Positions 27,927-64,000 of a stretch of 64,000 bases of DNA are shown piece by piece (the first letter of the stretch is position 1; the number at the start of each line of letters is the position of its first letter). The position numbers and the translations under genes are program-made. The notes beneath the pieces are model-generated. The model was given only the letters and a program-made list of their open reading frames with translations, did not search any database and was not told the DNA's origin. This DNA is from Candidatus Latescibacterota bacterium (lineage in GTDB: Bacteria; Latescibacterota; UBA2968; UBA8231): positions 5,984,001 through 6,048,000 of the forward strand of contig OZ244561.1 of assembly GCA_965217585.1 (NCBI GenBank), in the 5' to 3' direction.

Positions 27927-30662
27927 TTGAGCGAATCCAAGCTCATTATCAATAGATTGCGAAATGCTCTAGATGGGACGCGGGAGGTCGGCCGCCGACT
28001 TCGCACAGCACTGCCAATAATAGGGATCGGCATCGGACTGAGTTCGGGCCTGGCACAGGAGGCCGACGCCCAGTTCCTCAACCGCGGCGAGTACCCCCTG
28101 TGGCAGCGGGAGGCCTACGAGAACTACGCGGACATCAGCTACCTCGACTACGATATTGAGCGCGAACGGCGCACCTACGACGCCTTTGGAGCCTTCATGC
28201 TCGATGGCGTCGATCTCCTGCGCATAGAGGAATACCGCACGATACATCCTTTCAACGGCAGCATCATCTTCGAAAACCCCCTCAACCGCAACCTTTTTCA
28301 AAACTTGGTCGTAGTCGGCGACAGCTACGCCAGTTGGAACACCCGGCTGACCGTGGGCCGCGCCGTCGACGCCCACTTCACGCCGCTGACCTTGCACGCC
28401 TCGCGCCTCAACGGCGTGCGCTGGGATGCGGCCACCCGCAGAAATCGCTTCTCGGTGGTGGCCTCGCGCATATCGAGCCCGCTACTTGGCTTTGGACAAC
28501 GCACTCGCTCGTTTGCCAATTATCTCTACGGCGGCCGCTGGGAAGGTACCGTGGGTGGAATCCTCACCTTTGGGGCCTCCTACGTCAACCTGCACTACAT
28601 CGACAGTTTGAGCGGTCGCAAAAAGGTTTCGCAGAAGGGCAATGTGCCCGAGCGTTTACTACCGCCCCAATCGCTGTACGTCGCAGTATACGACGATTCT
28701 CCGGGCGATGACTCCGGGGCGCGGGTCCACGATATCACAGTACTCGTGGACGGGGTGCCGCAGCCGGATATAGAACCCGAGGTGATCAGGGTCGCCGATG
28801 TCGCCGGTCAGCGAGAACTCACCTCGGCAGACATTGACCACCTGCGGCGCTACGGTTCTTGGTTGGGAGCGCTCATGTCGTGGCGCACTTTCAGCAAGAT
28901 GATCGGCCGAGCAGACCCCGTCGAAGCAGGGGATGAGGATTTCCTCGAAGCCAGCGGCACGGATGTGCTGGTCTATCGCTTCGACGTGCCCGCAGAGGCC
29001 GGGTCGGCGGCATTTGACGCCACGGTCTCGAACGACTACAGCATAGATGTGGCCGCGCCTATTGGCCAGCGCGGGGTGGCGGGCATCACCTTTGACGACT
29101 GGCACAATGTTCGGCGCGCGCGCGGCAATCCGCGCAACGACTCTCCTCAGCAAGAGCATTTCCGCTACGGGTTGAACACCGGCGTGGTCACCTATGGAGC
29201 GGATGTGAAACTCGACTTCCACGATCTGACGGTGGAAGCCGAGTATGCGCGCAATTTCTCGCACTTCCAGTACCCCGTCTTTGAAGGCCGGCGCTCCACG
29301 GGCCAGCGCGACGCCTATTTCGTCGCCGCAAATCGGCCCTTTGGGCGCTGGAACTTAGGGGGGGAATTCTTTCGCCTGCCCGCCACCTTTGCCACGGGCT
29401 TCACGTACTGGCGTCCCGAGGGCAGCTCCTTTGAGACCTTTGAACTAGTCGAAGACAACGACGACCGCGACCAGTGGCCCGACGCCTGGGAACACTGGGA
29501 TCCGCTGGATCCCGCATTCTCCCTCGACATCGTGGCGCGGGCCACGCCCGAAGCCAAGGACAACCTAAGCCCGGAGCCCAACAAGGCCATTGGTTTTGGC
29601 GTCTTCCCCGGACTTGATGAGGACCGCGACGGCACGCAGGACACCAATGTGAACGAGAATCGCCTGCCGGACTACGAGGAACCCTTCCTGATGTACTATG
29701 TCGATCCCGACGACTTTGTCTTTGGCGACGATTTCAATAACAACAAGATTGTCGATGCGCGCGAAAACGACAATCTGCCGGACTACCCCTACGAACTGGA
29801 CTCCAAAGGCCCCCACCTCTTTGCGAGCTACAATCCCTTGGACAGCCTGAGTGTAACCGTGGGCTACTACGATATCGAGCAGATTGCCGGCGGCGGCGAG
29901 AATCGCACCGCTTATACGCGGGTACTCTACCGCTGGCCGCTGTCGAGTTGGGGGCAGCTAAACCTCAACTATATTGGCAAGCGGGTGCGCGACAACATCC
30001 CCACCTCGACCTACCAAGTAGTCGTCGACCCGCGCGTGCTGGAGAACTTCTCCATCGAGATCCGGCCGGACCCGCTGGAGATGCGCAACAGCTTGGCCAA
30101 CACCTTTTTCGGTCGCACGCGCTTCCACTTGGTCGATCACCTGCGGGCCGAGACTATCCTGCGCTTTGATACCAACAAGCAATTCGCAGAGCAGGAGGGA
30201 GATTCCCTCATCCAGGAGGAGGGAACCCGCAACGCTTGGGCCTTGGTGGCCAAGGCCGATTATACCTATGACTGGGGGCCTTTCAGCCTCCTGCCAATGT
30301 TCAAGTTCACCATGCAGAAGCAAACCTTCTCCAACGTCGACGCCTCCTTGGTGGAAAACCGCAGCATGTTTCCGATTGTGCGCCTCGACTACCGGGCTTC
30401 GGAGCGCACTGTCATCCGCGCCGGGCTACAGGGATTGCCGTTTTTCAAACACCGCTGGCGCAATCAAGTCGATCCCTTCGAAGACTTCGATGCGCGTCAC
30501 TGGATCTTGGTGCTGCAGACCCGAGACAACTACGTCGGATACGATCTCAGTTTCCTCTTGGGCTTCCGCTCGAGCCGCTTCAAGTTTTTAGAACTGGAAG
30601 CGCCGGAGGGCGATCCCACCGAGCGGACCAGCGAGATGTTCCTGCAGATACGAGTTGGGTAG
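27927..30662 (+). CDS. Uncharacterised ~910-aa exported protein, putative outer-membrane beta-barrel with Asp-rich loop (member 1)
   Basis: Signal peptide. Motifs FTPLTL..NGVRWD and DNDDRDQWPD..FPGLDEDRDG..PDYEEPFL..DxNNNxxxD..PDYPY. Amphipathic beta-strand C-terminal half ending MFLQIRVG. Confidence 0.75.
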   Translation: MSESKLIINRLRNALDGTREVGRRLRTALPIIGIGIGLSSGLAQEADAQFLNRGEYPLWQREAYENYADISYLDYDIERERRTYDAFGAFMLDGVDLLRIEEYRTIHPFNGSIIFENPLNRNLFQNLVVVGDSYASWNTRLTVGRAVDAHFTPLTLHASRLNGVRWDAATRRNRFSVVASRISSPLLGFGQRTRSFANYLYGGRWEGTVGGILTFGASYVNLHYIDSLSGRKKVSQKGNVPERLLPPQSLYVAVYDDSPGDDSGARVHDITVLVDGVPQPDIEPEVIRVADVAGQRELTSADIDHLRRYGSWLGALMSWRTFSKMIGRADPVEAGDEDFLEASGTDVLVYRFDVPAEAGSAAFDATVSNDYSIDVAAPIGQRGVAGITFDDWHNVRRARGNPRNDSPQQEHFRYGLNTGVVTYGADVKLDFHDLTVEAEYARNFSHFQYPVFEGRRSTGQRDAYFVAANRPFGRWNLGGEFFRLPATFATGFTYWRPEGSSFETFELVEDNDDRDQWPDAWEHWDPLDPAFSLDIVARATPEAKDNLSPEPNKAIGFGVFPGLDEDRDGTQDTNVNENRLPDYEEPFLMYYVDPDDFVFGDDFNNNKIVDARENDNLPDYPYELDSKGPHLFASYNPLDSLSVTVGYYDIEQIAGGGENRTAYTRVLYRWPLSSWGQLNLNYIGKRVRDNIPTSTYQVVVDPRVLENFSIEIRPDPLEMRNSLANTFFGRTRFHLVDHLRAETILRFDTNKQFAEQEGDSLIQEEGTRNAWALVAKADYTYDWGPFSLLPMFKFTMQKQTFSNVDASLVENRSMFPIVRLDYRASERTVIRAGLQGLPFFKHRWRNQVDPFEDFDARHWILVLQTRDNYVGYDLSFLLGFRSSRFKFLELEAPEGDPTERTSEMFLQIRVG

Positions 30663-30666
30663 AGCT

Positions 30667-33399: not shown

Positions 33400-36300
33400 G
33401 TGCATGAAGTGAATTTCGGATGGTTGGTTCTGGGCTATTTGGCGACTTTGATTGGGGTCACGCGCACGGTGCCCACGGTCGAAGAGGTGGCGTGGTCGTT
33501 TGAGCAGGGGCAGAAGTTTTACGCCTCGGGGGCCTACGACCAAGCCATAGACAAATACGCGGAAATCATCGCCATAGAGAGCCAACTCTTGGAGACCGCG
33601 GAGATCGAGTACTCCATCGGCGATGTCACGGCGCCGGTGCAGGACGCGTCGCGCTATCAAGCGGGCAATTCCCATCTCAAGATAGCCGAAGAACAATTCT
33701 TCCTCGGGCGCTCGCGGCGGAGCGAAAAGGAACGGCAGGAGTACGCGGAAAAGGGGCGTGAGAATCTGGAGCAGGCCATCCACTTTTTTGCAGAAGCTGA
33801 AAAGCACACGCAAGTGCCCAAACTGAAAGAATTGGCCCGCAACCGCATAGTTCAGGCTTGGTATAAGGCGGGCGATTACCAGCGCACCATCGAGGAAGGA
33901 AGGGCGCTCATCGAAAAGTACCCCGAGAGCAGCTACGTGCTCGTGGCCATGTACGACATCGGTTGGGCGTACTACGAGCTAGAGGAATACGAGCAGAGCG
34001 TGGCGACTTTCAAGGCACTGGTCGAGCGCTTCCCCGATGGCTACAAGAGCGATCGGGCACTTTTTCAGATCGGCGAGAATTACTATAAGCAGGAGCAGTA
34101 CGAGGAGGCCCTCCCCTACTTCCAGCGCCTAGTGGAACGGGCGCAGCTCGACCAACTCACCGACAAGGAAATCGCCAAGATGCGGCGGGAGAAAATTGCC
34201 GGGCTGGTGGACGAAACCGGGCTGGAGCTAGCGCTCAAGTCGCAGATCAAAGTCGGTGCTTGTCATGCGGAGCTGGGCCAATACGACCAGGCGGCCGCGG
34301 CCTATCGCAGCGTAGTGGGGTTGTTTACCAACGAACGCCTGCTGGCCGAAGAAGCCTACCGCCGCATGGCCGATATGTACTACGAGGCCGGCGACTTTGA
34401 ACGCTCGGTGCAAACCTATCGCAGTGCCATTGACGAGGTTACAGATCCGGTGTTCCGGGCACGCATGCACTCTCTGTTGGCCGAGCGCTACTACAACGAC
34501 GGGCGCTATGCCGAGGCTATCGAAGAGTATCGGCTCTATATCAAGGCCTATGCCGACGTGGCCGGGCGCGCTGGGTTTGGGCTGGACGAAGCGAGTTACA
34601 AGATCGGGCGCTCCTTCTTCGATATGGCCGAAGCGGAGCGGGGAAGGGGAGACACAGCAGCGGCCGCAGCCAATTATGGCCGGGCTATTGCCGAGTACGA
34701 AAAAGTGCTGGAGGAGTACCCAGATAGCTGGCTCAAGCTGGCCTGCATGTTCAGCATTGGCCTGTGCCAACAGATGATAGATACCGAAGAGTCGCGGGCA
34801 CAGGCGCTAGCGCACTTCCAGAACTTGGTCGAGGAGTATCCGCACGAAGAGTACGCGCAGAGTGCCTTCTTCCAGATCGCCCGTATCCACTACAGCCGGA
34901 AAGAGTACGCCCGCGCCATCGAAGTTTACCGGGAAATCATCGACCGGTACGGCGATTTTTCGCAGGTGGATATGGCCTATTTCGAGCTGGGCATTGCCCA
35001 GCGCCGCCACGAGGCCAAGGAGGAGGCCGTGGCCAGCTTCCTCAAAGTGCGCCCTAGTTCGGATCTCTACTCCAAGGCGCTGCAGGAAGCCAGCCAACTG
35101 CTCATGGCCATGGAGGAGTTCGACCGCGCGCTGGAGATTTTGCAAGAGGGCGCGAAGGTGACGGCCGATGATCGGGGGAAAGCCCAGAATCACTATCTGC
35201 AGGGCAAGGCCTTTGTGGGCAAGGAGGCCTACGCCGAGGCCATTCCCCACTTCGATCGGGTGCTGGCACTGAGCGCGGATCCGCAGATTTTGGAGAGCAG
35301 TCTCTACAGCCGTGGAGTGTGTTATCTCAGCCTGGAGCAATACGCTCGGGCCGAGGAAGACCTAGAGCAACTGACCCAAGCGGAAAACGCCAAGGTGCGG
35401 CGCTCGGCGCAGCGCATGCTGGGCATGGTGCGCATCCGGCAGCAGAAAGAAGCACAGGCCATTTTCAACTACCAAGTGCTGGCAGAGGAGGCTGCAGACG
35501 AGGCCGAGAAAGCCGAATATCTGCTGCTTTTGGCCGAACTCTACCACGGTCTGGGGCGCAATGAGGAATCAGCGGAAGTGGCGCGTCAGACCATTGATTT
35601 ACCGCTCGAAGATTTGCGCGCCGGGGGGGGCACCTACTCGGTTAAAGAGCGGGCGTTTTACCTGTTGGGCGACACCTACCTGCAAAAGGGTCAGTTTACA
35701 TCCGTGGTGGAGGTGTACTCGCAGGCCCTGGAACTCCATCCCGATGGTCACTATGCCGCGGATATGGTTTTTGCCATTGGCTCGGCTCATTTCGAACTAG
35801 GCGAACTCGACCGGGCTGTCGCGGTACTCGAGGCCTTCATAGACCGCTACCCCGACAATCCCAATCTGCCCCATGCTTACTACATTGTGGGATACTCCTA
35901 TTTCAACCAGACGCAGTTTGAGCCGGCCGCGGCGTCCTTTGCAGAGGCAAAGCGGTTTACCGAACGAGAATTCGTCGTGGACGCGCTGTACCGGGCCGGC
36001 GAGAGTTACTTCAATCTGGGACAATTCGATCGGGCCCTGAATCTCTATCGGGAGATTTTGGCGAAACATCCGCACGCCGAAGAGGCCGACGACGCGCTCT
36101 ACAATATGGGCTGGGCCCAACTGGAGTTGCAGCGGGAAGATCAGGCCATCGCTTCCTTTGAGGAGTTGGTAATGCGCTATCCCGCCAGCGAGTTCAGTCC
36201 CAATGCCCAGTTTTCGATTGGCGACTACTACTACAACAAGCAGGATTACGCCAAGGCACTGAGTGCGTACGAAACGGTACTGGCGCGCTATCCAGACGAT

Positions 36301-36666
36301 CCACTGGCCGAGAAGGTGCCGGAATTGGTCGCCGACCTGCGCGAGATCATGGCCTATCTGGACTACGAGCAGGCCATGGTGCCGTTCAGAGTGGCCATGG
36401 ACAGTAAGAATCCAGCCGAACTCACAAGGGAAAAATTTGGCGAGACCATACCTCTGCTGCGGGAAATCGTCGACAAGTATCCGGGCACGGAGACACAGAT
36501 CGGGGCGCTGATCAATTTGGGGATCTGCTATGAGAGTTTGAGTCGTTGGAAGGAGGCAGTGGCGGTGTACGAAAGAGTAAGCCAGGAATCCGGGAGCCAG
36601 GTCTCACCTGATGCGCAGCAATTTGCCCAGGCTCACAAGGACTGGATCGTGGCCAACCGGCTCTAG
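33400..36666 (+). CDS. Large periplasmic TPR protein (YbgF/BamD-like repeats)
   Basis: N-terminal hydrophobic segment and many TPR units of the form A.Y.IG..YY...Y..A...F..LV..YP.S over 1088 aa. Confidence 0.9.
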   Translation: MHEVNFGWLVLGYLATLIGVTRTVPTVEEVAWSFEQGQKFYASGAYDQAIDKYAEIIAIESQLLETAEIEYSIGDVTAPVQDASRYQAGNSHLKIAEEQFFLGRSRRSEKERQEYAEKGRENLEQAIHFFAEAEKHTQVPKLKELARNRIVQAWYKAGDYQRTIEEGRALIEKYPESSYVLVAMYDIGWAYYELEEYEQSVATFKALVERFPDGYKSDRALFQIGENYYKQEQYEEALPYFQRLVERAQLDQLTDKEIAKMRREKIAGLVDETGLELALKSQIKVGACHAELGQYDQAAAAYRSVVGLFTNERLLAEEAYRRMADMYYEAGDFERSVQTYRSAIDEVTDPVFRARMHSLLAERYYNDGRYAEAIEEYRLYIKAYADVAGRAGFGLDEASYKIGRSFFDMAEAERGRGDTAAAAANYGRAIAEYEKVLEEYPDSWLKLACMFSIGLCQQMIDTEESRAQALAHFQNLVEEYPHEEYAQSAFFQIARIHYSRKEYARAIEVYREIIDRYGDFSQVDMAYFELGIAQRRHEAKEEAVASFLKVRPSSDLYSKALQEASQLLMAMEEFDRALEILQEGAKVTADDRGKAQNHYLQGKAFVGKEAYAEAIPHFDRVLALSADPQILESSLYSRGVCYLSLEQYARAEEDLEQLTQAENAKVRRSAQRMLGMVRIRQQKEAQAIFNYQVLAEEAADEAEKAEYLLLLAELYHGLGRNEESAEVARQTIDLPLEDLRAGGGTYSVKERAFYLLGDTYLQKGQFTSVVEVYSQALELHPDGHYAADMVFAIGSAHFELGELDRAVAVLEAFIDRYPDNPNLPHAYYIVGYSYFNQTQFEPAAASFAEAKRFTEREFVVDALYRAGESYFNLGQFDRALNLYREILAKHPHAEEADDALYNMGWAQLELQREDQAIASFEELVMRYPASEFSPNAQFSIGDYYYNKQDYAKALSAYETVLARYPDDPLAEKVPELVADLREIMAYLDYEQAMVPFRVAMDSKNPAELTREKFGETIPLLREIVDKYPGTETQIGALINLGICYESLSRWKEAVAVYERVSQESGSQVSPDAQQFAQAHKDWIVANRL

Positions 36667-43279: not shown

Positions 43280-43287
43280 GAATTGTT

Positions 43288-52698: not shown

Positions 52699-55546
52699 AG
52701 CCTAGGACGATGCGCATAAACATGGAGTTGATCTGCAAATTGCGGGTGCTCTGGCGCGGGTCGAGGAACTCGATCTTATCGAAGAGCAGGCCCGCGTTCA
52801 TGATGAGCTGGTAGCCGAAATACTCGGAGCGATTGCTCACCATGAGGATGCGGTTCTGGCGATTGACGCTCTGGCTCGGGTCGGTCAGATCCCTGAGTTG
52901 GTACTTGAGCCAGGGGAATCCCTGGATGCCGCCTTTGAACGAGGTTCTCTCGGTGAGGCGACACTCGGCCTTGAGGATGGGAATGAGTTGGCGCTCGTGC
53001 GTCAGGGGGACGCTGGTTTTCCGACGCGCTTTTTTTAGATAGAGTACCTTGAACTGGGGTGCTACTCGCCAGGGGCCGGACTGCCAGGTATAGCTGACCT
53101 TGTGCACTCCGGCCAGCAGGCGCACTTGGTCTCGGCGCTGGAAAGTGCCGTCGTCAAATAGACTTTCGCGCTGATTGTTGGTCTCCAGCTTGATTCTGTT
53201 GGTCACTTCCAGGCCGGGCACGGCCCGCAGGCGGGTGTCGAGATAGGTGCGGTGCACCAGACTGTTGCGATAGTTGAGTTCATCGGCCACGCGCTCGGAG
53301 CCGAACTGAGAACTGAAAAATCCGTCGCCAGCCGACTGAAAGGGGCGGTTTGTAGTCTCGCCAAAGCGCACGATCTCGTCTGCAATATCGTCGTGCACGC
53401 GCTTGACCTCGTGCTCCACTTCAAAGACACCTAAGCCAAAATGGGTCACGCGGTAATTCAAACGTCCATAAGCTACGCGGTTGTGGCGGCCGGCGGCGAT
53501 CTGCCCGCTGTGCAGCCGGCCCAACATCAGGCGCAGATGGCGCCAAGGCGCTACCCAGCCCATCAGGTGGGCCCCTGCGAGATCGAGGTCGTAGGGATAC
53601 TCCGGGTTGGTGTCGTCCTCGCGCACGTCGGGCACGTCGTTGTTGTCCATATCGGCGCCGTACACGTAGTCGTCCGACTCGATACCGAACATCAGAAAAG
53701 GCTCGCGGTAATCCGGCGTGAGGTTGTAATTCTTGTTGGTATCGGGTAGGCCGTCCTGGTCCTCGTCCTTGCCCGGAAAGATACCGTCGAGATCTTCGGT
53801 GCGCAAAAATCTGCCGGTTTCGCCGAACCACACGTCCGGGGCGCGGTCGTGGTCGTCGTTGTCCTGGACCAGCGGGTAGAAACCCGTGTCGTTGATCACC
53901 GCGCGGGTGTAGTCCCGGGCGGGGATGTTGGGCACATTGGCGATCAGGTAGGTTCTGTAGTCGGGTTGCATGGAGAAGAATTCGCCGCCCAGCCCCCAGC
54001 GCGCAAAAATCTTGTTGGCCACCAGGTACCAGGCGTGCCCCCGCTCGTTGAAGCGGTCGCCGGCGAGGTCGAGGTTGGGGAATTGATTGTATTCTAGGCT
54101 GCTGGCGAATTCGCCCTCAATCTCGAGGCCGTGAAAGTTGGCGTGGGCATTGACGCTGTAGATGGATAGTCCGGTGGGCGCGCCGTAGTGGAACTTTTCC
54201 CAGCGCACGTTGGACAGATCCTGGACATTGCCCGGGGCGCGAATAATGGTGCGGAAGAAGTCGGCGCGGTACTGGCGCTCGTAGGGGTTGTTGCGGCCCG
54301 CCTTGTTCTGCACCTCTGAGATGCTTATCTGATAGTCGTTACCCACTAGGAAGCCCAGTTCGACCGCATCGACTTCCTGCAGCTCCCGCATGTCGAAGTA
54401 GTAGATCAGATAGGCGTCGCCGTCGGCGCTGGCTACTGCGTCGGACACGATTTCAGCCTGCGCGGTCAGGCGAGGGATGTTGGCTCGCGTGCTCACATCC
54501 TCGCCGGCTAGGTGATCCCTCAGATAGAGGTAGTCGGCAAAGAGCGGGATCTCGCTTGGCTCGCCCAAGAGCCTGAAAACGCCGGGGGGGTTCTTGAACG
54601 CCGCGGAGTAGGGGTTGGGGGTGAAGCGGCCGTTCGCCGCGGTGCGGCCCACGCTCGTGTCCTTGGAGCGGTAGCGCACCACGTCGGGTCGGATGTCGTC
54701 GCGCCGCTCGCCGTTGATCCACACGGCCACGTCGAAGACTACGGGACCACCGCGCTCGTCTTCGGGCGACTCGTCCGACACCCTGATGGCCAGCCACAGG
54801 GGCGCTTTGCGGCTGGTGGGAAAAGCGCCCTTGAGACTCTCCTCTCCTTGGTCCAGGTTGGTGGAGTGGATGTTCACGTACGTGGCACCGAGATTGAGCC
54901 CGCCCAAGCTGCGCTCAAAGTGCCCACCCAAGATGTAGATTGGGTTGAGGTCGATGAAGGGGCCGGTGAGGCCCACCTCGCGAAAGGCGCCGCGCGGATA
55001 GCCCGGATGGCTGATGCGAGAGCTTATGACCGAGATTCGGTTCCGCTCGGTCATCCAGTCGAGGCGGATGCCGTTGAGGTTGGCCCAGTAGAAGGTCAGC
55101 GGCGTGAACATGGTCCTGATCTCATTGCCATATATGGCGCGTCCCGACCAACTCTTGGTGGCATCACTGGCGATGACCACATTGTCGAAGATGCCGTAGT
55201 AGCGGCCGTCGTGTTTGAAGAGCTGGCTGTCGCTGTCGCCGGTGGAAGAGCGGTTTTCTTCCCACCAGACTACGTCAAAACCGCTGATGAGACGGTCACC
55301 TAAAGGGCCGTAGAAGGTGCGGCGCGAAGAGGTGTAGGGGAAGTCCGAATCGCCGTAGTTGGTGAAGGGATTGTGGGCGTAGGTAGTAAAGGTAGGTGCT
55401 GGGTCCAAGAGTAAAAGGCGGGCAGGATAGACCTGCTCGACAGCGACGTAATCCTCGTCCTGCTTCAGACCTTGGCTGTAAGCTGATTCTGCGCAGTAGG
55501 CGGCGAGGAACAGGAAACTCGCGATTGTGGATCTTGTTCCTCTCAT
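52688..55546 (-). CDS. Uncharacterised ~950-aa exported protein, putative outer-membrane beta-barrel with Asp-rich loop (member 4)
   Basis: Signal peptide and the same motifs; ends MFMRIVLGYED. Overlaps the member 3 start by 11 nt. Confidence 0.75.
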   Translation of the reverse strand: MRGTRSTIASFLFLAAYCAESAYSQGLKQDEDYVAVEQVYPARLLLLDPAPTFTTYAHNPFTNYGDSDFPYTSSRRTFYGPLGDRLISGFDVVWWEENRSSTGDSDSQLFKHDGRYYGIFDNVVIASDATKSWSGRAIYGNEIRTMFTPLTFYWANLNGIRLDWMTERNRISVISSRISHPGYPRGAFREVGLTGPFIDLNPIYILGGHFERSLGGLNLGATYVNIHSTNLDQGEESLKGAFPTSRKAPLWLAIRVSDESPEDERGGPVVFDVAVWINGERRDDIRPDVVRYRSKDTSVGRTAANGRFTPNPYSAAFKNPPGVFRLLGEPSEIPLFADYLYLRDHLAGEDVSTRANIPRLTAQAEIVSDAVASADGDAYLIYYFDMRELQEVDAVELGFLVGNDYQISISEVQNKAGRNNPYERQYRADFFRTIIRAPGNVQDLSNVRWEKFHYGAPTGLSIYSVNAHANFHGLEIEGEFASSLEYNQFPNLDLAGDRFNERGHAWYLVANKIFARWGLGGEFFSMQPDYRTYLIANVPNIPARDYTRAVINDTGFYPLVQDNDDHDRAPDVWFGETGRFLRTEDLDGIFPGKDEDQDGLPDTNKNYNLTPDYREPFLMFGIESDDYVYGADMDNNDVPDVREDDTNPEYPYDLDLAGAHLMGWVAPWRHLRLMLGRLHSGQIAAGRHNRVAYGRLNYRVTHFGLGVFEVEHEVKRVHDDIADEIVRFGETTNRPFQSAGDGFFSSQFGSERVADELNYRNSLVHRTYLDTRLRAVPGLEVTNRIKLETNNQRESLFDDGTFQRRDQVRLLAGVHKVSYTWQSGPWRVAPQFKVLYLKKARRKTSVPLTHERQLIPILKAECRLTERTSFKGGIQGFPWLKYQLRDLTDPSQSVNRQNRILMVSNRSEYFGYQLIMNAGLLFDKIEFLDPRQSTRNLQINSMFMRIVLGYED

Positions 55547-55782
55547 GGCGGTACTCGGCTGGACTATTTGTCGGAGCCTTCAATCGCACCTGCGGGCACG
55601 CCCCTTCCGCAGGACTCGCGCCCAGCTCCAACTCGGTGCTGGCTATACAGCTATCTATCCAAATGCCTCTGGAAGCCTCTGTCAACGGTCGATGTAAAAG
55701 AAAGGTCACGGGACTCAGGCAAGCACGGGATGTTACAACAGGCAGTGGCGATAGCTCCGGCTGGCAAAGAAATAAAAATTTG

Positions 55783-55863
55783 TTGACTATCAGTAGGTAT
55801 AACTTTATATATAATATAGGCTGATATGTAAATGGGTTTACTGTTGCCTGCGTGTATACACGC
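55783..55863 (+). promoter_or_regulatory. Candidate sigma70-like promoter and palindromic operator in an AT-rich divergent intergenic region
   Basis: TTGACT (55783), 17 nt, then TATATA, with TATAAT at 55810. 14-bp palindrome gcgtgtatacacgc at 55850-55863. Confidence 0.4.
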
Positions 55864-55963
55864 GAAAAGGAAGACATAAAAAGCGGCATAAATAAAATTA
55901 GAACAATAAGTTGACCTATTTTCTTCCCAATCAATTCGCTTACTCCCAACAAGGAGGAGTATC

Positions 55964-57925
55964 ATGAGAAAGTGGAACCGTGCAGTTGCTTTAGTGGGAG
56001 CCTTGGTCATCGCCAGCGCGGCAGTGGCCCAGGACGAAATAGTGCCGAGGTGGGATCCGAACAACTGGAATAGCGGCGATCCCACGCCGATGTCGCTAGA
56101 AGTGACAGAAAGTCTGCCGACTTATAGCGGCAGTGGTTCGGTGGAGATTCCCTTTACCATCGACCAGCCCGCGGCCGTGCATGTGGCCGTCTACTCCACC
56201 GGGGCCAATCCCGCGCCGCGGCCCTTCATCCGCGACCAGCGCACCTTTGGCTATGACGGCCACTGGGATGGGGTCAACCAAGTCTATGTGGGCACCGAGG
56301 GCGGCATTGCCCGCGGTGAGAATACCTTTATGGACACGATGGTGTGGCGCTCCCCGGACGAAAATCTCTACTTCGATGCGGGTTCGCACACGATCACTTG
56401 GCCCGGGATCGATATGAACAGCAACCAGATGCCGGCGGGTGACTATACATTCTACGTTCTCACCTTCAACGACCAGAGCGTCACTACCGTGGGTCGGGCG
56501 GCCGCGCAGTGGGGGGTGGAGTGGGAGATCAACTTCGACGCCGATCCGCCGGAAATCTGGGGCTGGGCCACGTTCGCCGACGGCAGTGATGCAGCCTTGA
56601 ACAGTACCTTTATAAAGAGCACCATTGGCACGGACTGGCGTTCCAGCCCAGATGCGTACGAGAGCTATACAGCCGGAGAGGTGTACACCGCCATCGCCAC
56701 GGCCAATGGCAACCCCGAGGGCGTGATCACTCAGTGGGGTTTCCTGATGGATCCGCGCGCCAAAGGCCGCGATTTCTACCTCACCGATTTCACCGGGCCG
56801 GCCCCGGGGCTCACTAAGGTGCGGCTGAACGACGACGGAGTAGTCGAAGCGGTTAGCGAATTCGGCGAAAACGGGTACGTGTTCCAGCCGGCGCGGACCT
56901 ACCAGGTCGAGTGGGTATTTGACCAGCTCATCAATATCGACGCCAACCGGACGGATCTCGTTGACGAGGTGATCTACAGCGATCCAGATACAGGAGAGCG
57001 CCTACGCGCCCACGATTTCACCGAGGTCTTCGGCGGCGAGGTCCTGCGCGACGACGAGCCGGTTCCCTTTGTGGGCGGCATGTCCTCCTTTGCCGTCAAT
57101 GAGAACGGGATCTGGGCCACGTCGCACTCGTCGCGCAGCTTCCACGTGTTGCGCGCCGATCACGATGGCAAGGAGATCTGGGTCAATGCCAACGGCGACG
57201 GCTGGATCGACACCATCTTGTGGGACCACGACGACGACCCGGAGACGGGTGTGGAAATGATCATCGGTGACCACTGCAAGGACTCGGCGGTGGGGACCTT
57301 CGACATGTACTTCTGCTCGCCGGGCACCCGCGGTTCGGGCGAGGGCAGAGTGGGGATCGTACTGGGGCCCGACGGCAGCGGCTTCGCGCGCTTGAAGATC
57401 CGCAATGCAGTCAACCTGGAATCCGAGAATTCCAACGAGTTGCAGTACCACGAATTGGGCGGCCCGTACGATGGCTGGTACAAGTCCATAGGCCACGATC
57501 CCACCAAGCGCCAGGACCAGATCGAAGCGAACGAGTTGCCCTATGAGCCCGCGCCGGGTTGGGTCGTCCACATTCCGGGTCGGATCCGCAGGGGTAGCAT
57601 TGGCGACGATGGGACTGCCGTGTTAGCGGTAAGCGATAATACGCCCGATTCTTATAGCCTAGGCAACGCCTATCCCAACCCGTTCAACCCGGAGACTACC
57701 ATCGAGTTCAAGCTGCCGCAGGCCGGCCACTCCGTGCTTTCGGTTTACAACGCGGTCGGGCAGGAGGTGGTGAGACTGGCGGACGAGCTCCTCGAAGCTG
57801 GCGTGTACCAGGCCAATTGGGATGGACGCGACAAGAGCGGTCAGCAGGTCTCGAGCGGCGTGTATATGTACACGCTCAAGGTCGGGGACTTCGCAGAGAC
57901 CAAGCGCATGACGTTGTTGAAGTAA
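55964..57925 (+). CDS. Secreted acidic protein with C-terminal T9SS type A/FlgD-Ig sorting domain and a second N-terminal FlgD-Ig-like domain
   Basis: AAGGAGGAG SD; signal peptide (AAVA-Q); C-terminal YPNPFNPETTIEF...WDGRDKSGQQVSSGVYMYTL...KRMTLLK; N-terminal IPFTI...AGSHTITWPGIDMNSNQMPAGDYTF. Confidence 0.88.
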   Translation: MRKWNRAVALVGALVIASAAVAQDEIVPRWDPNNWNSGDPTPMSLEVTESLPTYSGSGSVEIPFTIDQPAAVHVAVYSTGANPAPRPFIRDQRTFGYDGHWDGVNQVYVGTEGGIARGENTFMDTMVWRSPDENLYFDAGSHTITWPGIDMNSNQMPAGDYTFYVLTFNDQSVTTVGRAAAQWGVEWEINFDADPPEIWGWATFADGSDAALNSTFIKSTIGTDWRSSPDAYESYTAGEVYTAIATANGNPEGVITQWGFLMDPRAKGRDFYLTDFTGPAPGLTKVRLNDDGVVEAVSEFGENGYVFQPARTYQVEWVFDQLINIDANRTDLVDEVIYSDPDTGERLRAHDFTEVFGGEVLRDDEPVPFVGGMSSFAVNENGIWATSHSSRSFHVLRADHDGKEIWVNANGDGWIDTILWDHDDDPETGVEMIIGDHCKDSAVGTFDMYFCSPGTRGSGEGRVGIVLGPDGSGFARLKIRNAVNLESENSNELQYHELGGPYDGWYKSIGHDPTKRQDQIEANELPYEPAPGWVVHIPGRIRRGSIGDDGTAVLAVSDNTPDSYSLGNAYPNPFNPETTIEFKLPQAGHSVLSVYNAVGQEVVRLADELLEAGVYQANWDGRDKSGQQVSSGVYMYTLKVGDFAETKRMTLLK

Positions 57926-57976: not shown

Positions 57977-58018
57977 AAATCAGGAAGGGATTTGCGCAAA
58001 TCCCTTCCTGATTTTTTT
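57977..58018 (+). terminator. Rho-independent terminator
   Basis: 38-bp perfect palindrome aaatcaggaagggatttgcgcaaatcccttcctgattt running into T7, about 50 nt after the stop at 57925. Confidence 0.8.
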
Positions 58019-61000
58019 ATGGCAGACAGATTTGATCACTTTGGGGTTAGGGTTTTGTCCAGCGGAAACGACAGGGGCCAGTACATCAGACCGATCCTGA
58101 TGACGCTCTTCCTCCTTTCTGGGGGGTGTGGGCTGATCTACCAAGTGGTCTGGATGCGCATGCTGGGATTCGCAATGGGCAGTACTGTGCTCGCAGTGAG
58201 CACCGTACTGACTGCGTTCATGGCGGGATTGGCCCTGGGAAGTTTCTCTTTTGGCCGCCTTATCGACCGCCGCGCAGATGCCCTGAAGGCCTATGCTTAC
58301 TTGGAAATAGGGATCGGGCTTTGCGGCTTGGCCATGCCGACATTGCTGCTGGGATTGAGTCCGATCTATGTCGGGATGACTCGTCTCCTGGGCGACTCTT
58401 ATGCGGCGCTTTCTCTGGCGCGCTTTGGTCTGTGCTTTGCGCTGCTGGTGGTTCCCACGACCCTGATGGGAGGTACCCTGCCCGTTCTCAGCAAGTTCTT
58501 CGTGGCGCGCAAGGAGGTGCTGGGCTGGAATGTCGGGGTGCTCTACGCGGTAAACACGCTGGGGGCCGTAATCGGCTGTTTTGCCGCCGGGTTTGTGCTA
58601 ATCGGGACTGTGGGGGTGGTGGAGACGGTCTACATCGCCGCCGTGCTCAATCTTCTCGTAGCTGCAGGAACCCTGGTGCTCAGAGCGGTTGCGCCGGATG
58701 CGGAGAGCGGCCTAGAGGCAGAGCCAGCAGGGCAAAAACAGGAGCAGCGTCCCAGACTTCCGGGCCTAGCGCTTTTAATTTTGTGTGCTTTCGGCCTTTC
58801 GGGCTTTGCGGCGCTGGGCTACGAGGTGATCTGGTCGCGGATTCTGGTATTCTTCGTGGGCAATTCGACCTATGCCTTCAGCGCTATGCTGACGACCTTC
58901 CTGTTGGGACTGGCCCTGGGTAGTTTTGTAGCTGGCAAGCTCGCAGATCGCAGGGGCGATCTGGTTGGGGCGTTCGGTGTGGTGGAGATACTCATCGGGT
59001 TATCGGCCCTGGTGGGCATGGTGCTCCTGAGGGGAACCATAGCGGCAGAGGGCCTCTGGGTGATGCAGGAACAGACGGCTTTTAGCTGGTACGGCGAGAT
59101 CGGGAAGATGTTTAAGGCGTCCTTCGCGGTTATGTTCGTCCCAACCTTGTTTATGGGAGCGACCTTTCCGCTGGCCAGCAAGGCCTACGTGCGCTCCGTC
59201 CAGGAAGTAGGACGGGATATCGGTGCCGTCTACTCGGTGAACACCTTGGGAGCCATCCTCGGGGCCTTTATCTCCGGTTTTGCCATCCTGTCCTGGCTCG
59301 GCGTGCAGGGAGCGATCATCTTCCTGGCCGCGATCAATGCTGTGGTGGGCTTGGTTATCCTCTTGGTCAATCGCACTTCGACGGCCAGGCTGCGCTTCGT
59401 CGTTGCGCCGCTTCTGGGGGCTGCGGTCTTTATCACCGCCATCTTCCTTCCATCCCACTTTGTGTTGCCGAGCGACTTCGAGGGCAAAGAGGACGCCGTG
59501 CTCTTCTACCAGGAAGATCGGGCCGGCACCGTCAAAGTCTATCGCAAGCCGGATGGCCATCTGCTCATCAGCGTCGATGGCAACACCATCGGGGATACGA
59601 GGGACGATCTGGATGCCAAGCAGCGCTTGTTGGCCCATCTGCCGCTCTTGCTGGCTCCCGATCCCAAATCGATTCTAGTGGTCGGCCTGGGCAGTGGCAT
59701 TACGGTGGGCGCCATGACTCTCTACGAAGAGGTCGAACTCATCGACTGTGTCGAGATCGTGCCGGGCGTGGTGGAAGGGGCCAAGTACTTCGAGGCCCAC
59801 AACCGCGGTGTACTTAAGAAACCACAGGTGAACGTGGCAGTCGCGGACGGCATCAACTATCTGCTGACCTCCGACGGGAAGTACGACGTAATCTCTTCGG
59901 ATGCCAAGCTCAATCCAGCCTATACGGGCAACGCGGTCTTCCTCTCAAGCGACTACTACCGCCTGTGCCTAGAACGGCTCTCGGAGGACGGCATGATGGT
60001 GCAGTGGATCCCGCTGCATCTGCCGCAGGACAGCTACCAGATGGTACTCAGGACCTTCGCCGAGGTCTTTCCATACGGGACGATCTGGTTCTTCCCCGGT
60101 AAACACACCATCCTGATCGGGACCCGGCACAAACTGGAGATCGACTTGGCGCGCTTGTGGCGGCGCTTGCAGGTATCCGAGGTGCGGGGGGACCTAGCGC
60201 GCTTTGGCCTGGACCATCCACTGGCGCTTCTGAGCGGCTACCGGGGAAAGCGTGCAGACATCCTCCGCTACGTCGGCAGCGGCGAATTGAGTAGCTGGAA
60301 TCATCCCTACATCGAGTTCCAGACGCCGCGGGGCCTGGCGCTTGCGACGGGAAAGAACCAAGCTGGCAACCTGCGCGGGATAAGACAGATCAGAGGAGAT
60401 ATTCGCTCGCATCTTACCACAACTGCCGAGCATGAATTCGAGCAGATCCGGGAGCAGTTGCAGCGCTATGTCCAATCGACCGAGCTGCTCATAGAAGGTC
60501 TGGCGCAAGCGCAAGAAAGTGGCCTGCTGAGCTATGGAGAGGCTTTCTTCCGGCAGATCCTGCGCTCCCACCCGGAGGACAGGCGGGCGCAATACTGGCT
60601 GGCCCGTTCCATGCGGGAGCGCAGAGATGTCCAGAAAGCTACAGCCGGGGTCAGAGACGCTAGAGCTTATATAGTGCTGGGCAACACTTTTTTGACAGAG
60701 GGTGCCTTCACCAAGGCGCTGGAGGCCTTTGCGCGGGCAACCGAGATAGAGCCGGAGAATGCCGTGGCGCACTACCACTTGGGGGTGGTCAGCGAATACA
60801 GCGACGAGGGCCGGCGCTACGGTCCAGGCTTTGCGCGTGCCCGCGCCATTGCCGCGTACGAAAAGGCGATCTCGATTCGGAAAGACTACGTCGAAGCCCA
60901 CTACAACCTCGGCGTGGTCTGTCAGCATAATGAAGAGGGGAAACGCTATGGACCGGGCGCGCAGGTCGAGCGCGCCAGCGCAATCTTCAAACGGGTCGTA

Positions 61001-61168
61001 GAGATGGCACCGATGCACGCCGCGGCGCACAACAACTTAGGGGCGATCTACTTTCACCAGAAACTCTATACCAAGGCGAGAGCCGCCTGGGAGCAAGCGC
61101 TCAAAGGCAATCCGAATCTGCGCTCAGCGCATATCAATCTGGGCCTTCTGGATGAGAGGGGATGGTGA
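58019..61168 (+). CDS. Fused MFS-like membrane domain / spermidine-synthase-like SAM-binding domain with C-terminal TPRs (copy 2)
   Basis: SGGCGLIYQVVWMR, LYAVNTLGA, VGLGSGIT, VEIVPGV, ADG, DVISSD; TPR tail. Start uncertain (58019, 58055 or 58100). Confidence 0.9.
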   Translation: MADRFDHFGVRVLSSGNDRGQYIRPILMTLFLLSGGCGLIYQVVWMRMLGFAMGSTVLAVSTVLTAFMAGLALGSFSFGRLIDRRADALKAYAYLEIGIGLCGLAMPTLLLGLSPIYVGMTRLLGDSYAALSLARFGLCFALLVVPTTLMGGTLPVLSKFFVARKEVLGWNVGVLYAVNTLGAVIGCFAAGFVLIGTVGVVETVYIAAVLNLLVAAGTLVLRAVAPDAESGLEAEPAGQKQEQRPRLPGLALLILCAFGLSGFAALGYEVIWSRILVFFVGNSTYAFSAMLTTFLLGLALGSFVAGKLADRRGDLVGAFGVVEILIGLSALVGMVLLRGTIAAEGLWVMQEQTAFSWYGEIGKMFKASFAVMFVPTLFMGATFPLASKAYVRSVQEVGRDIGAVYSVNTLGAILGAFISGFAILSWLGVQGAIIFLAAINAVVGLVILLVNRTSTARLRFVVAPLLGAAVFITAIFLPSHFVLPSDFEGKEDAVLFYQEDRAGTVKVYRKPDGHLLISVDGNTIGDTRDDLDAKQRLLAHLPLLLAPDPKSILVVGLGSGITVGAMTLYEEVELIDCVEIVPGVVEGAKYFEAHNRGVLKKPQVNVAVADGINYLLTSDGKYDVISSDAKLNPAYTGNAVFLSSDYYRLCLERLSEDGMMVQWIPLHLPQDSYQMVLRTFAEVFPYGTIWFFPGKHTILIGTRHKLEIDLARLWRRLQVSEVRGDLARFGLDHPLALLSGYRGKRADILRYVGSGELSSWNHPYIEFQTPRGLALATGKNQAGNLRGIRQIRGDIRSHLTTTAEHEFEQIREQLQRYVQSTELLIEGLAQAQESGLLSYGEAFFRQILRSHPEDRRAQYWLARSMRERRDVQKATAGVRDARAYIVLGNTFLTEGAFTKALEAFARATEIEPENAVAHYHLGVVSEYSDEGRRYGPGFARARAIAAYEKAISIRKDYVEAHYNLGVVCQHNEEGKRYGPGAQVERASAIFKRVVEMAPMHAAAHNNLGAIYFHQKLYTKARAAWEQALKGNPNLRSAHINLGLLDERGW

Positions 61169-61213: not shown

Positions 61214-64000
61214 CTATTCTTTGTAGCCCAGAATGACGCGCATGAACATGGCGCTGGTCTTGCGGTTGCGGGCGCGCTGGCGCGGGTCGACAAATTGGAT
61301 CTGCTCAAATGTCAGTCCCGCATTCATAATGAGATCGTAGCCGAAGTACTCCGAGCGATTGCTGACAAAGAAGGTGTGGTTCTGGCGATTGAAACTGTTG
61401 GCTTGGTCGGTCAGATCCCTGACTTGGTATTTGAGCCCCTTGAGCGGGAATCCCTGAATCCCGCCTTTCACCGAGGTGCGCTCGGTAAGGCGATACTCGG
61501 CCTTCACAATGGGCATGAGCTGGCGCTCGTGTCCCAGCGGTACGGCGGTTTCGCGCCGCTCCTTTTTCAGGTAGAGCACCTTGAACTGCGGCATCACCCG
61601 CCAGCGCCGGCCTTTTAAGCCATAGCTGACCTTGTGTACCCCGGCCAAAAGGCGAAGGCGATCCCGGCGCTGGAAGGTGCCGTCCTCAAAGAGGGTGCGG
61701 CGCTGCTCGTTGAGCTCCAGCTTGATGCGGTTCTCTACCACCAGTCCGGCCAACGGCGTGGTGCGGCTTTCCAAGTAGGTGCGGTGCACTAGGCTGTTGC
61801 GGTATCTCAGTTCATCCGCCACGCGCCGGGAGCGAAACTGGGCAGAGTACCACTGACCCCCGGAGCTAAAGGAACGACTTGAGCCTTCGTTGAACTGCAC
61901 GGTCTCATCGGCAATATCGTCGCGCACCCGCTTGATCTCGTGCTCTACCCGGAACGCGCCGATTCCAAAGGCTGCCCCCTGGTAACTGGCGCGTCCGTAG
62001 ACCATGCGGTTGCGGTTCCCACCGGCGATTTGTTCGCTGTGCAGCCGCCCTAGGGTCAGGCGCAGATGCCGCAGCGGCTCGGCCCAACCCAGCAGGTGGC
62101 CTCCCTGCAGATCGCGGTCGTAGGGATATTCGGGGTCGAGATCGTCTTCGCGATAATCCGGCACGTCGTTGTTGTTCAGGTCGGCCCCATAGACGTAGTC
62201 GTCCGACTCGACATCGAACATCAAGAAAGGTTCCACATAGTCGGGAAGGGGGTTGTAGTTGCGGTTGGTATCGGGCAGGCCATCATGGTCCTCGTCTTTG
62301 CCGAGGAATACGCCGTCGGGGTCTTCTTCGCCGGCGAAAACGTCTCCGAGTACCATGCCCAGCCACACGTCTGGAAAGCGGTCGTGGTCGTCGTTGTCCT
62401 GCACTAGGTGGTAGATGCCGGTATTATTGGCAAAGCCCCACTCGTTGTAGGTTTCAAAGTCTTGCGGTATGTGGGCGAACATGGAGGTCTTGTAGGCCGG
62501 ATTCATGGAAAAAATCTCACCGCCCACTCCCCAGCGCTCGGCGTCTTTGGTGGCCACCAGGTACCAGGCCCGCGCTCGCTTGTCGTGCCGGGCGCCATCG
62601 AGTCCGGGATTGGGGTACTGGTTGTGTTCGACGCTGGTGGCCCATTCGCCGGCGATATCGAGGCCGAGAAAGTTCAGATTGGCGTTGACGCTGTAGAGGG
62701 ACAATCCGGTGGGTGCCCCGTACTTGACCTTTACCCAGCGCACATTAGAGAGGTCCTGGACATTGCCCGGTGCCCGGGCGACGACGCGAATGATTTCGGC
62801 GGTAAACTGGCGCTCGTACGGATCGCGGCTCCTTCCCTGCTGGTGCAACTCCGAGAGGCCTATCTGGTAGTCGTTGCCCACCAAAAAGCCCAATTCGACG
62901 GAATCGACCGCCTCGACATCGCGCATATCCAGATAGTAGATCAGGAAGTCGTCGCCATCTGCCCGGTGCACCTCGTCGGGCGGCAACAACTCGACGTTGG
63001 CGGTGAGGAGTGGGACGCTGACTCGCTTGCTCACATCTGTGCCGCGCAAATGGTCCTGCAAATAGAAATAATCGGCAAAGAGCGGAATCTCCAGAACCTG
63101 ATCTGCAACCCGAAAAAGAAAACCCCTGTGAGCCTCGTTCGGACTGGCCGTAGTGTAAAACCGCGAGGCATAGGCATTGGGCGAAAATCGGCCCGTCCCG
63201 GCACTGATGCGTCCCACCGCCGTCCGCACGGTCCTGTGGCGCACCACCTCGGGCCGCAGGTCGTCGCGCCGCTCGCCATTGACCCACACCGCCATATCGA
63301 AGACCACCGGCCCGCCGCGGCCGTCCTGCGGCGATTCGTCTGCTATTTTGATGGCCAAGATGTCCGCCGGGTCGCGGCTTATGGGCAGCGACCCCCGCAG
63401 TTCTTCTTTGCCTTGGGCGACGTTGGTGGAGTGGATGTTGACATACGTGGCACCGAGGCGGAGCAGTCCAAGGGCACGCTCGGCGTGTCCCCCTAGGATA
63501 TAGACCGGATTGAGGTCTCTGAACTCCTCGCCATCGTGTTCGCGGAAGGGGCCGTGGGGATAGCCAGGCCGGCTGACGCGCGAGCCGATGACCGAGATCT
63601 GGGTGCGCTCGGCCATCCAGTCCAGGCGCAGACCATTGAGTCCGGCCCAGTAGAAAGTCAGGGGCGTGAACATGGTGCGGATTTCATTGCCAAAGATGGC
63701 CCGCCCCGACCACCCGGCCGCGGCGTCGCTGGCCACTATCACGCGGTTGAAGATCGAGTAGTAGCGGTTGTCGCTCTTGAAGATCCAGCTATCGCTGCCC
63801 TGCTCCGCGGAGCGGTTTTCCTGCCACCAGGCCACGTCAAAGCCGCTGATCAGCCGGTCGCCCAAAGGTCCATAGTAGGTGCGGCGCGACGAGGTGTAGG
63901 GAGGGACCGCGTCGTCGTAGTTGGCAAAGGGCGTGTGGGCATAGCTGGCAAAAGCGGGGGCCGGGTCCAGCAGGAAGGGGTGATGAGCGGGGTAGATCTG
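61214..64000 (-). CDS. Uncharacterised exported protein, putative outer-membrane beta-barrel with Asp-rich loop (member 5); N-terminus beyond the window end
   Basis: Frame is open to 64000 (QIYPAHHPFLLDPAPAFASYAHTPFANY..., collinear with members 3 and 4). Same motifs; ends MFMRVILGYKE. Confidence 0.78.
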   Translation of the reverse strand, partial: QIYPAHHPFLLDPAPAFASYAHTPFANYDDAVPPYTSSRRTYYGPLGDRLISGFDVAWWQENRSAEQGSDSWIFKSDNRYYSIFNRVIVASDAAAGWSGRAIFGNEIRTMFTPLTFYWAGLNGLRLDWMAERTQISVIGSRVSRPGYPHGPFREHDGEEFRDLNPVYILGGHAERALGLLRLGATYVNIHSTNVAQGKEELRGSLPISRDPADILAIKIADESPQDGRGGPVVFDMAVWVNGERRDDLRPEVVRHRTVRTAVGRISAGTGRFSPNAYASRFYTTASPNEAHRGFLFRVADQVLEIPLFADYFYLQDHLRGTDVSKRVSVPLLTANVELLPPDEVHRADGDDFLIYYLDMRDVEAVDSVELGFLVGNDYQIGLSELHQQGRSRDPYERQFTAEIIRVVARAPGNVQDLSNVRWVKVKYGAPTGLSLYSVNANLNFLGLDIAGEWATSVEHNQYPNPGLDGARHDKRARAWYLVATKDAERWGVGGEIFSMNPAYKTSMFAHIPQDFETYNEWGFANNTGIYHLVQDNDDHDRFPDVWLGMVLGDVFAGEEDPDGVFLGKDEDHDGLPDTNRNYNPLPDYVEPFLMFDVESDDYVYGADLNNNDVPDYREDDLDPEYPYDRDLQGGHLLGWAEPLRHLRLTLGRLHSEQIAGGNRNRMVYGRASYQGAAFGIGAFRVEHEIKRVRDDIADETVQFNEGSSRSFSSGGQWYSAQFRSRRVADELRYRNSLVHRTYLESRTTPLAGLVVENRIKLELNEQRRTLFEDGTFQRRDRLRLLAGVHKVSYGLKGRRWRVMPQFKVLYLKKERRETAVPLGHERQLMPIVKAEYRLTERTSVKGGIQGFPLKGLKYQVRDLTDQANSFNRQNHTFFVSNRSEYFGYDLIMNAGLTFEQIQFVDPRQRARNRKTSAMFMRVILGYKE

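Follow-up and report, generated by a model that had tools for sequence, protein, structure and literature searches.

We describe here five related genes in a 64,000-nucleotide stretch of DNA from a Candidatus Latescibacterota bacterium (assembly GCA_965217585.1, contig OZ244561.1, forward-strand positions 5,984,001 to 6,048,000; this whole stretch is called the window, and positions are counted from its first nucleotide). The five genes are predicted to encode Sec-exported giant outer-membrane beta-barrels of a family that is absent from Pfam and NCBIfam and that resembles Deinococcus SlpA only remotely in fold. Members of the family divide into three classes, A, B and C, and are encoded together with a recurring set of envelope and surface proteins. 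The reading that we favour, and to which we give an even chance, is that the barrels form a hetero-oligomeric outer-membrane channel of an envelope system coupled to the proton motive force, most likely one for glycan capture and uptake. Complex glycans are degraded by Latescibacterota and related lineages, which are widespread but uncultured, and to our knowledge the routes by which material passes their outer membrane have hardly been described. On a minimal reading, the data define a new giant-barrel family with a strongly conserved acidic insert, putatively in the pore. If the whole gene set is one machine, it would represent a new architecture for energised outer-membrane transport and would give names to hundreds of proteins now called hypothetical.

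A family of predicted giant outer-membrane barrels

The original prediction had proposed a five-member family of putative outer-membrane barrels in this window, and all five open reading frames (ORFs) were found to be present and related. Member 1 (class A; 27927-30662, + strand) comprises 911 amino acids (aa) from a TTG start, and its mature N-terminus probably lies near residue 49-50, at the sequence QFLNR. Member 2 (class B; 30655-33375, +) is an ORF of 906 aa whose likelier start is the ATG at 30667, 4 nucleotides (nt) past the stop codon of member 1. The remaining three belong to class C and lie on the opposite strand: member 3 (49867-52698, -; 943 aa), member 4 (52688-55546, -; 952 aa), which shares 11 nt with the start of member 3, and member 5 (61214-64000, -), for which 928 aa fall within the window and the 5′ end lies outside it. 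The homology of member 5 to members 3 and 4 continues to the last codon of the window. Each assignment combines the ORF with its position in a tree; members 1, 2 and 5 were also assigned by alignment and member 3 by an AlphaFold2 (AF2) model and Foldseek searches. An additional ORF that overlaps the start of member 4 (55296-55952, -) was considered spurious because it is of low complexity and has no family match.

Upon alignment of the five proteins, every motif listed in the original prediction was invariant. The invariant columns include Y67/Y75/G88/G94, F151-T-P-L-T155..N162-G163.R165.D167, G216-A217...N221, V267.D269..G276..D281..P284.V286.R288, G478-G479-E480.F482 and F905...G911, along with D510-N-D-D513.D515, which opens a long Asp/Asn-rich stretch that runs to about position 622. 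By BLASTP, member 1 matched member 3 with 351 bits (E 1e-110, 30% identity across 933 columns) and member 2 with 359 bits (E 6e-114) over essentially the full length. As had been proposed, members 3-5 are close to one another and members 1 and 2 are distant, with identities to member 3 of 66% for member 4 and 64% for member 5 vs 31% for member 1 and 30% for member 2. Signal-peptide-like N-termini, which had been claimed for the whole family, are visible in members 1-4, and that of member 5 would lie beyond the window end. The C-termini (...MFLRILLGYGA, ...LRPTNY and ...QIRVG) are only loosely typical of a beta-signal.

The claim that these proteins carry no recognisable annotation also held. 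None of the five matched any Pfam family at E<=0.01 or any NCBIfam family at E<=1, and profile searches of PDB sequences returned noise only (E 1.3 with a 5-sequence profile and 0.046 with a 63-sequence profile). A word-indexed search found 73 relatives, and every named one was called 'hypothetical protein'. Exhaustive profile searching recovered 796 representatives at E<=1e-3, 554 at E<=1e-10 and 268 at E<=1e-30, which sets the size of the family at a minimum of 796 clusters at 50% identity. In the ESM Atlas, we found only unnamed clusters from Latescibacterota and Gemmatimonadota, the nearest named cluster being a 'TonB-dependent receptor-like' DUF6029 group at 0.88. This lead was dropped when 29 distant homologs gave no DUF6029 match, even at E<=1. 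Our literature searches, which covered sources outside subscription, found no paper on the barrel family or on its gene cluster, and none of the papers found on novel AlphaFold barrel families covers this one. Likewise, searches on Latescibacter or Latescibacteria with type IX secretion, T9SS or outer-membrane beta-barrels yielded nothing relevant, and neither did those on DUF4159 and DUF5683, including PMC13744359. Both the family and the system around it thus appear to be undescribed.

To assess the fold, we built an AF2 model of member 3 from the 63-sequence alignment. The model has a mean per-residue confidence (pLDDT) of 83.3 and a predicted TM-score (pTM) of 0.82, and it is almost all beta. 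Its DSSP assignment consists of one helix in the signal-peptide region (residues 5-41) followed by nearly only long beta-strands, the first confident one of which begins about 50-80 residues after the signal peptide. We count about 26 membrane strands from the DSSP string, with an uncertainty of about two. Along this string, turns of 2-6 residues alternate with longer loops, and two big insertions both fall on the long-loop side, which would be extracellular or luminal: a beta-rich domain of ~230 aa (about residues 220-452) and an Asp/Asn-rich segment of ~100 aa (about residues 535-646). The sidedness was read off the same string by taking the C-terminus as periplasmic, which is where it lies in known outer-membrane barrels.

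A Foldseek search of the PDB with this model gave top matches that were all outer-membrane barrels, led by SlpA (8ae1_A, E 5e-8), MtrB (6r2q_B, E 2.6e-6) and LptD (5iv9_A, E 1.7e-5). Three SlpA entries are among the best matches (8ae1, 7zgx and 8agd, E 5e-8 to 4e-7), and SusC and TonB-dependent transporters (E about 1e-4) and SprA (6h3i_A, E 8e-4; 8gl6_A) follow later in the ranking. Since the TM-scores of these matches are low (0.15-0.25), they speak for a fold class and not for membership of a family. In 7 of 34 distinct homologs, the Pfam model SlpA_C matched at the same position with 16.7-28.3 bits, below its cutoff of 35, which is consistent with a remote kinship of the family to SlpA-type barrels. 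By every curated model that we applied, the proteins are classed as neither TonB-dependent receptors, LptD nor SprA; no Pfam or NCBIfam profile for SprA, LptD or another named giant barrel matched the family, and the resemblance to these proteins consists of fold matches only.

The modelled strands are amphipathic. In the family profile, 24 model strands had a period-2 hydrophobic moment of 0.54 on the Wimley-White scale, compared with 0.40+-0.045 for random windows, of which 4 in 2000 reached 0.54, and 0.38+-0.033 for within-strand shuffles, of which 0 in 2000 did. Apart from the signal peptides, no hydrophobic helices were found in the five members. As modelled, the members therefore fit the general class of outer-membrane beta-barrels, with a signal peptide, amphipathic strands, short turns alternating with long loops and no transmembrane helices, and the assignment made in the original prediction is borne out to this extent. 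The Asp-rich part is the most conserved of all: residues 555-651, about 10% of the length, hold 26 of the 74 columns that are invariant or at least 90% conserved. Its motifs resemble the DxDxDG type, which would suggest Ca2+ binding, and the segment could accordingly be a Ca2+-stabilised insert in the pore.

Three classes and a recurring set of neighbours

Using the 5-sequence alignment as seed, we searched a species-level genome collection for related loci and confirmed 219 out of 364 candidate stretches; the best 80 of these gave the 52 loci considered here (L001-L052). Most are from Candidatus Latescibacterota, some are from metagenome-assembled genomes of Gemmatimonadota or Gemmatimonadaceae, and one each comes from Handelsmanbacteria, Kryptonium (L052) and Bacteroidota (L051). 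Several genomes carry two or three barrel loci, as in the case of L007, L010 and L022, which share one chromosome, and every one of several loci in a genome has a lectin gene of its own.

Three family genes stand in tandem in 37 of the 52 loci. We calculated a FastTree phylogeny of 75 rows, drawn from 25 of the 52 loci and the five window proteins, after leaving out ORFs shorter than 800 aa and trimming over-called starts to the last 960 residues. The tree contains three clades, each with a support of 100, that correspond to array positions 1, 2 and 3 (21, 21 and 28 rows), as well as a small fourth group of single or double copies from Kryptonium/Bacteroidota and from L042 and L044. Member 1 falls in the position-1 clade (A), where its nearest relative is the position-1 gene of L001 (59% identity), and member 2 in the position-2 clade (B), nearest to the position-2 gene of L034 (60% identity). 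Members 3-5 form their own clade within class C, beside the position-3 genes of L001 and L034. On the evidence of sequence, the family is composed of three ancient paralog classes that are normally encoded in the order A-B-C.

The operon in the window runs lectin-A-B-TPR-DUF5683 with gaps of 15, 4, 24 and 17 nt and has no room for a C gene. By their place in the tree, members 3-5 are three diverged class C copies that now lie outside the operon, and they are not recent duplicates, because their pairwise identity at the DNA level is only 67-80%. Their arrangement has parallels elsewhere: a class C gene on the minus strand divergent from a plus-strand gene for a protein with a FlgD-type C-terminal domain (FlgD-CTD) recurs for extra C copies in L010, L014, L015 and L037. 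The tandem pairs of the original prediction can be recognised for members 1+2 and 4+3, and member 5 stands alone within the window.

The first gene of the operon (25842-27911, +; 689 aa), which ends 15 nt before member 1, encodes a lectin-type surface protein, as assigned from Pfam, PDB lectins and an AF2 model. After a signal peptide comes a lectin-like domain (residues 29-146), for which the PDB lectins 6t0q/6t1d/6kbj were matched at E 4.5e-8. An F5/8 type C domain (206-305) and additional beta-sandwiches follow, and the protein ends in a CHU_C/FlgD_ig domain of the type IX sorting type. The CHU_C match reaches 30.8 bits, above the curated sorting-domain cutoff of 27. The model (pLDDT 88.3) is an all-beta string of sandwiches, gave no enzyme-like match and shows no adhesin-like repeats beyond the beta-sandwich modules. 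Of the 47 loci with >=2.5 kb of upstream sequence, 43 have a homolog of ~690 aa immediately before the barrel array. When residues 50-911 of member 1 were paired with the lectin protein's sorting domain (570-689) in a complex prediction, the score was 0.00, which counts as evidence neither way. In L052 (9106-10029) and L034 (2349-3179), an extra gene of ~280-307 aa without Pfam match stands between the lectin and the first barrel; this gene is found in the Kryptonium/Bacteroidota loci and in L034, is absent from the 15-nt gap of the window and may be a further facultative component.

Downstream of the barrels, 24 nt past member 2, a gene at 33400-36666 (+) encodes a protein of 1088 aa with Pfam TPR/YfiO matches. 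Its specific NCBIfam matches are all sub-threshold, PorW/SprE for example at 94 bits against a cutoff of 250. The last gene of the operon (36684-37244, +) encodes a small membrane protein with a Pfam DUF5683 match and two hydrophobic segments. Among the 23 fully flanked loci, a ~1080-aa TPR homolog lies next to the array in 14, DUF5683 is found in 5, and one or the other in 17.

Two further components are encoded upstream of the operon on the minus strand. The DUF4159 protein (23017-24276, -; 419 aa), assigned from Pfam and a match to PDB 4i66 at E 1e-11, has a single N-terminal transmembrane helix at residues 32-50 followed by a basic linker, which may constitute a TonB/TolA-like anchor. Adjoining it, the gene at 21699-23087 (-) encodes a protein with a Pfam TonB_C domain and a lipobox-like N-terminus, and its start is probably an internal ATG near 23006. 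In NCBIfam, this protein matched myxo_SS_tail (AgmX/PglI-type) at 66 bits (cutoff 40) and tonB_Cterm at 33.8 bits (cutoff 27.1). All 23 fully flanked loci have a DUF4159 or TonB_C-like gene. We also noted an unusual amplification of this putative transducer in L042 of Latescibacterota, where three tandem, near-identical DUF4159 genes (15592-19757) follow a two-barrel array.

A second secreted protein is encoded at 55964-57925 (+; 653 aa), divergently from member 4, and carries a Pfam FlgD_ig domain. Its sorting domain is of type IX type A, with 35.6 bits for TIGR04183 (cutoff 23), 59.6 for FlgD_ig (cutoff 27) and 35.8 for CHU_C (cutoff 27), and FlgD-CTD homologs are present in 20 of the 23 fully flanked loci. 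In the nearest relatives, L001 and L002, the FlgD-CTD gene lies between the DUF4159 and lectin genes, at a site that the window fills with an intact-looking insertion sequence (24314-25617, +), consisting of a DDE transposase gene (24426-25592) and 20-nt inverted repeats (24314-24333 and 25598-25617) that are 95% complementary.

Homologs of ExbB were found in the flanks of 19 of the 52 loci and of ExbD in 10, across several differently ordered locus types. Both genes lie within the cluster in L052 and adjoin it in L020, and in each case the DUF4159 gene is next to ExbB/ExbD. Overall, the same gene set is kept through at least six gene orders (the L001, L007/L010, L009, L020, L045 and L052 types), which argues for a functional linkage, with the proviso that the loci are not independent.

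Lastly, two fused proteins that adjoin barrel loci are encoded at 37248-40037 (-) and 57992-61168 (+). They combine MFS-like membrane and spermidine synthase-like domains with a C-terminal TPR part and match NCBIfam MFS_SpdSyn at 134-140 bits. In L042, a clear homolog (424 bits) immediately precedes the barrel pair, and other loci gave weak matches (45-66 bits in 12 loci, to the TPR part) or none. These fusion proteins are possibly linked to the barrel system.

Proposed glycan uptake and the alternatives

We propose that A, B and C would come together as a single hetero-oligomeric channel. A heterotrimer is the simplest case because SlpA, the nearest structural relative, is a trimer with metal-binding acidic insertions in its pore. 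The channel would be the outer-membrane module of an envelope-spanning system whose other modules are the type IX-exported lectin-type surface proteins, the ~1080-aa periplasmic TPR scaffold, the membrane-anchored DUF4159 protein and the TonB_C-like protein. The A/B/C channel would be coupled to an ExbB/ExbD proton channel, whose genes belong to the cluster in several relatives, and the lectins may capture large glycans for energy-coupled uptake. We favour uptake over export because each of the several loci in a genome has its own lectin, the lectin-type protein has two domains of carbohydrate-binding type and the setting is one of glycan catabolism, the window also encoding sulfatases, a GH78-type rhamnosidase and a BNR protein.

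Such uptake would be analogous in function to that by SusCD and TonB-dependent transporters, without homology to them. As in those systems, the barrel genes are immediately preceded by one for a surface glycan-binding protein, TonB_C-, ExbB- and ExbD-type genes are linked, and a genome may have several paralogous loci. Unlike SusC, however, the barrels have no Plug or TonB_dep_Rec match in Pfam or NCBIfam; the surface partner is a beta-sandwich lectin with a sorting domain rather than a TPR-like SusD lipoprotein; and each set has three barrels together with a giant TPR protein and a DUF4159 protein.

A bolder version of the uptake reading, which we put forward tentatively, is that a heterotrimeric A/B/C channel forms the outer-membrane end of an undescribed machine of Latescibacterota and allied FCB (Fibrobacteres-Chlorobi-Bacteroidetes) lineages that is driven by the proton motive force. 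In this machine, a TonB-like anchored DUF4159 transducer and the ~1080-aa TPR scaffold would couple ExbB/ExbD to the channel, and lectins displayed through type IX secretion would feed it. If true, energised transport across the outer membrane would have evolved independently in a third form, in addition to TonB-dependent transporters and the type IX/gliding motors.

Several points weigh against the channel-and-uptake reading. The five members have no match to Plug, a TonB box or TonB_dep_Rec. The conserved N-terminal motifs (FL.R..YP and Y.NY) do not look like a TonB box; we had considered reading them as TonB boxes and rejected this, as the mature proteins begin with them and they are class-specific. 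No ExbB or ExbD gene lies within the 64-kb window, and, in contrast to typical polysaccharide utilisation loci, the barrel loci do not themselves encode enzymes that degrade glycans. In the window, class C is uncoupled from A-B and present threefold, which a strict 1:1:1 complex would not require. Many of the 52 loci are orthologous loci of close genomes and cannot be taken as independent samples. With respect to the fold, both the strand count and the sidedness of the inserts come from the DSSP string, and a crude single-sequence Kyte-Doolittle measure of odd/even alternation, which does not separate the strands, gave 1.55 vs 1.45+-0.21 for random windows.

The most serious rival assigns the barrels to the outer-membrane portion of a machine for export or surface motility, like type IX secretion or the Myxococcus Agl-Glt machinery, in which an ExbBD-type motor would push the adjacent sorting-domain proteins, or a polymer, to the outside or anchor them there. 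We consider this unlikely on balance, yet it accounts for a good deal of the evidence. Most loci have, next to the barrel genes, two genes for proteins whose C-terminal domain is of the type IX sorting type, the best NCBIfam match of the TonB_C-like protein is the AgmX/PglI/GltG-type tail, the TPR protein shows the sub-threshold match to PorW/SprE, the SprA translocon is among the fold matches, and the cluster is conserved in the manner of a machine, without catabolic enzymes. The Agl-Glt machinery and its paralog Nfs span the envelope and consist of a TolQR/ExbBD-type motor, TonB-like and TPR proteins and outer-membrane barrels. This component set is comparable to ours, and the TonB_C-like protein matches the tail model named for AgmX, PglI and GltG. 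The outer-membrane proteins of Glt are small, however, unlike the giant barrels here; no Glt protein was matched at equivalog level in NCBIfam, and none of our results links the present system to motility. The type IX translocon and attachment proteins (SprA, PorV, PorW/SprE and PorU/PorZ) similarly offer a giant barrel, a TPR protein and sorting-domain neighbours, but SprA is about 2.5 times longer than the present barrels. Except for the generic sorting and TonB_C domains, no type IX or Glt equivalog cutoff was reached, and the sorting domain is the one curated type IX model that was matched. Moreover, a genome may hold several paralogous loci with a separate lectin for each, which looks more like substrate-specific uptake sets, and the lectin protein lacks adhesin-like repeats.

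A rather improbable alternative is that the proteins have a passive role, as giant porins or as stabilisers of the outer membrane like SlpA/OmpM, and that their neighbours are unrelated envelope proteins. According to PMC9388160, Deinococcus SlpA is a homotrimer of 30-stranded barrels with Asp-coordinated metal sites in its pore insertions. The present family is likewise one of very large single-chain barrels with long acidic insertions; SlpA/OmpM entries (Pfam SlpA_C, PF21620; 8ae1, 7zgx and 8agd) are its best fold matches, and the sub-threshold SlpA_C matches recur at one place. On the other hand, none of the five window proteins matched SlpA_C at E<=0.01, homologs stayed below the 35-bit gathering score, and profile searches of PDB sequences gave no SlpA match. 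The family also differs from SlpA in having no SLH domain (no Pfam match) and no coiled-coil stalk in the model, about 26 strands by DSSP rather than 30, and three co-encoded paralog classes instead of one gene that forms a homotrimer. It occurs in candidate phyla of the FCB group and not in Deinococcota or Terrabacteria, and it sits inside a lectin/TPR/DUF4159/TonB_C/ExbBD cluster. A linkage to lectin, TPR, DUF4159 and TonB_C genes that persists through at least six gene orders would not be expected of unrelated neighbours. We regard the proteins as a new giant-barrel family in a new system context, to which SlpA-type giant barrels may be similar in their workings and possibly remotely related.

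That the proteins are highly divergent TonB-dependent receptors proper, with a 22-strand barrel and an N-terminal plug, seems very improbable to us. The DUF6029 cluster of the ESM Atlas (a lead only), the TonB-dependent transporters and SusC among the fold matches and the linked TonB_C, ExbB and ExbD genes would fit this explanation. Against it, no Plug, TonB_dep_Rec or DUF6029 match was obtained for the five members or for 29 distant homologs, even at E<=1, the 50-80 residues ahead of the first confident strand are few, and the DSSP strand count exceeds 22.

Least probable of all is the suggestion of the original prediction that each tandem pair forms a heterodimer or makes up a single larger barrel split in two. 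Members 1+2 and 4+3 are indeed adjacent, the former 4 nt apart and the latter overlapping by 11 nt. Against this, members 1-4 have signal peptides of their own, member 3 was modelled as a complete single-chain barrel, and the ancestral unit is the A-B-C triplet. A search for relatives of member 3 with lengths of 1652-4715 aa gave none, which is weak evidence. The pairs turn out to be A+B and C+C, so they fit neither two heterodimers of the same kind nor a barrel divided between two genes.

Other features of the window

Genes scattered through the window look like a strong setting for glycan or lipid modification. About ten paralogs of the PhyH (phytanoyl-CoA dioxygenase) type are found at 4251-5009, 16406-17999, 20457-21263, 41283-43117, 45837-46700 and 48169-49844, the last of these being a tandem pair with 75-78% DNA identity. 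Among them lie two sulfatase genes (316-1893 and 18924-20450) and the genes for the BNR protein (1787-3016) and the GH78-type rhamnosidase (43222-45840).

A TnpB/OrfB_IS605-type gene is present at 47035-48156, with HTH_OrfB_IS605, OrfB_IS605 and Cas12f1-like TNB domains, and no adjoining TnpA was detected among the ORFs scanned. In addition, four paralogous membrane proteins of ~655 aa, each with DUF6785 and DUF6784, are encoded between 5067 and 15255. Three are in tandem (5067-7037, 7120-9102 and 9133-11097), and the fourth (13252-15255) follows an FG-GAP gene on the opposite strand. A homolog of these proteins is also encoded beside the barrel locus L020 (3316-5295).

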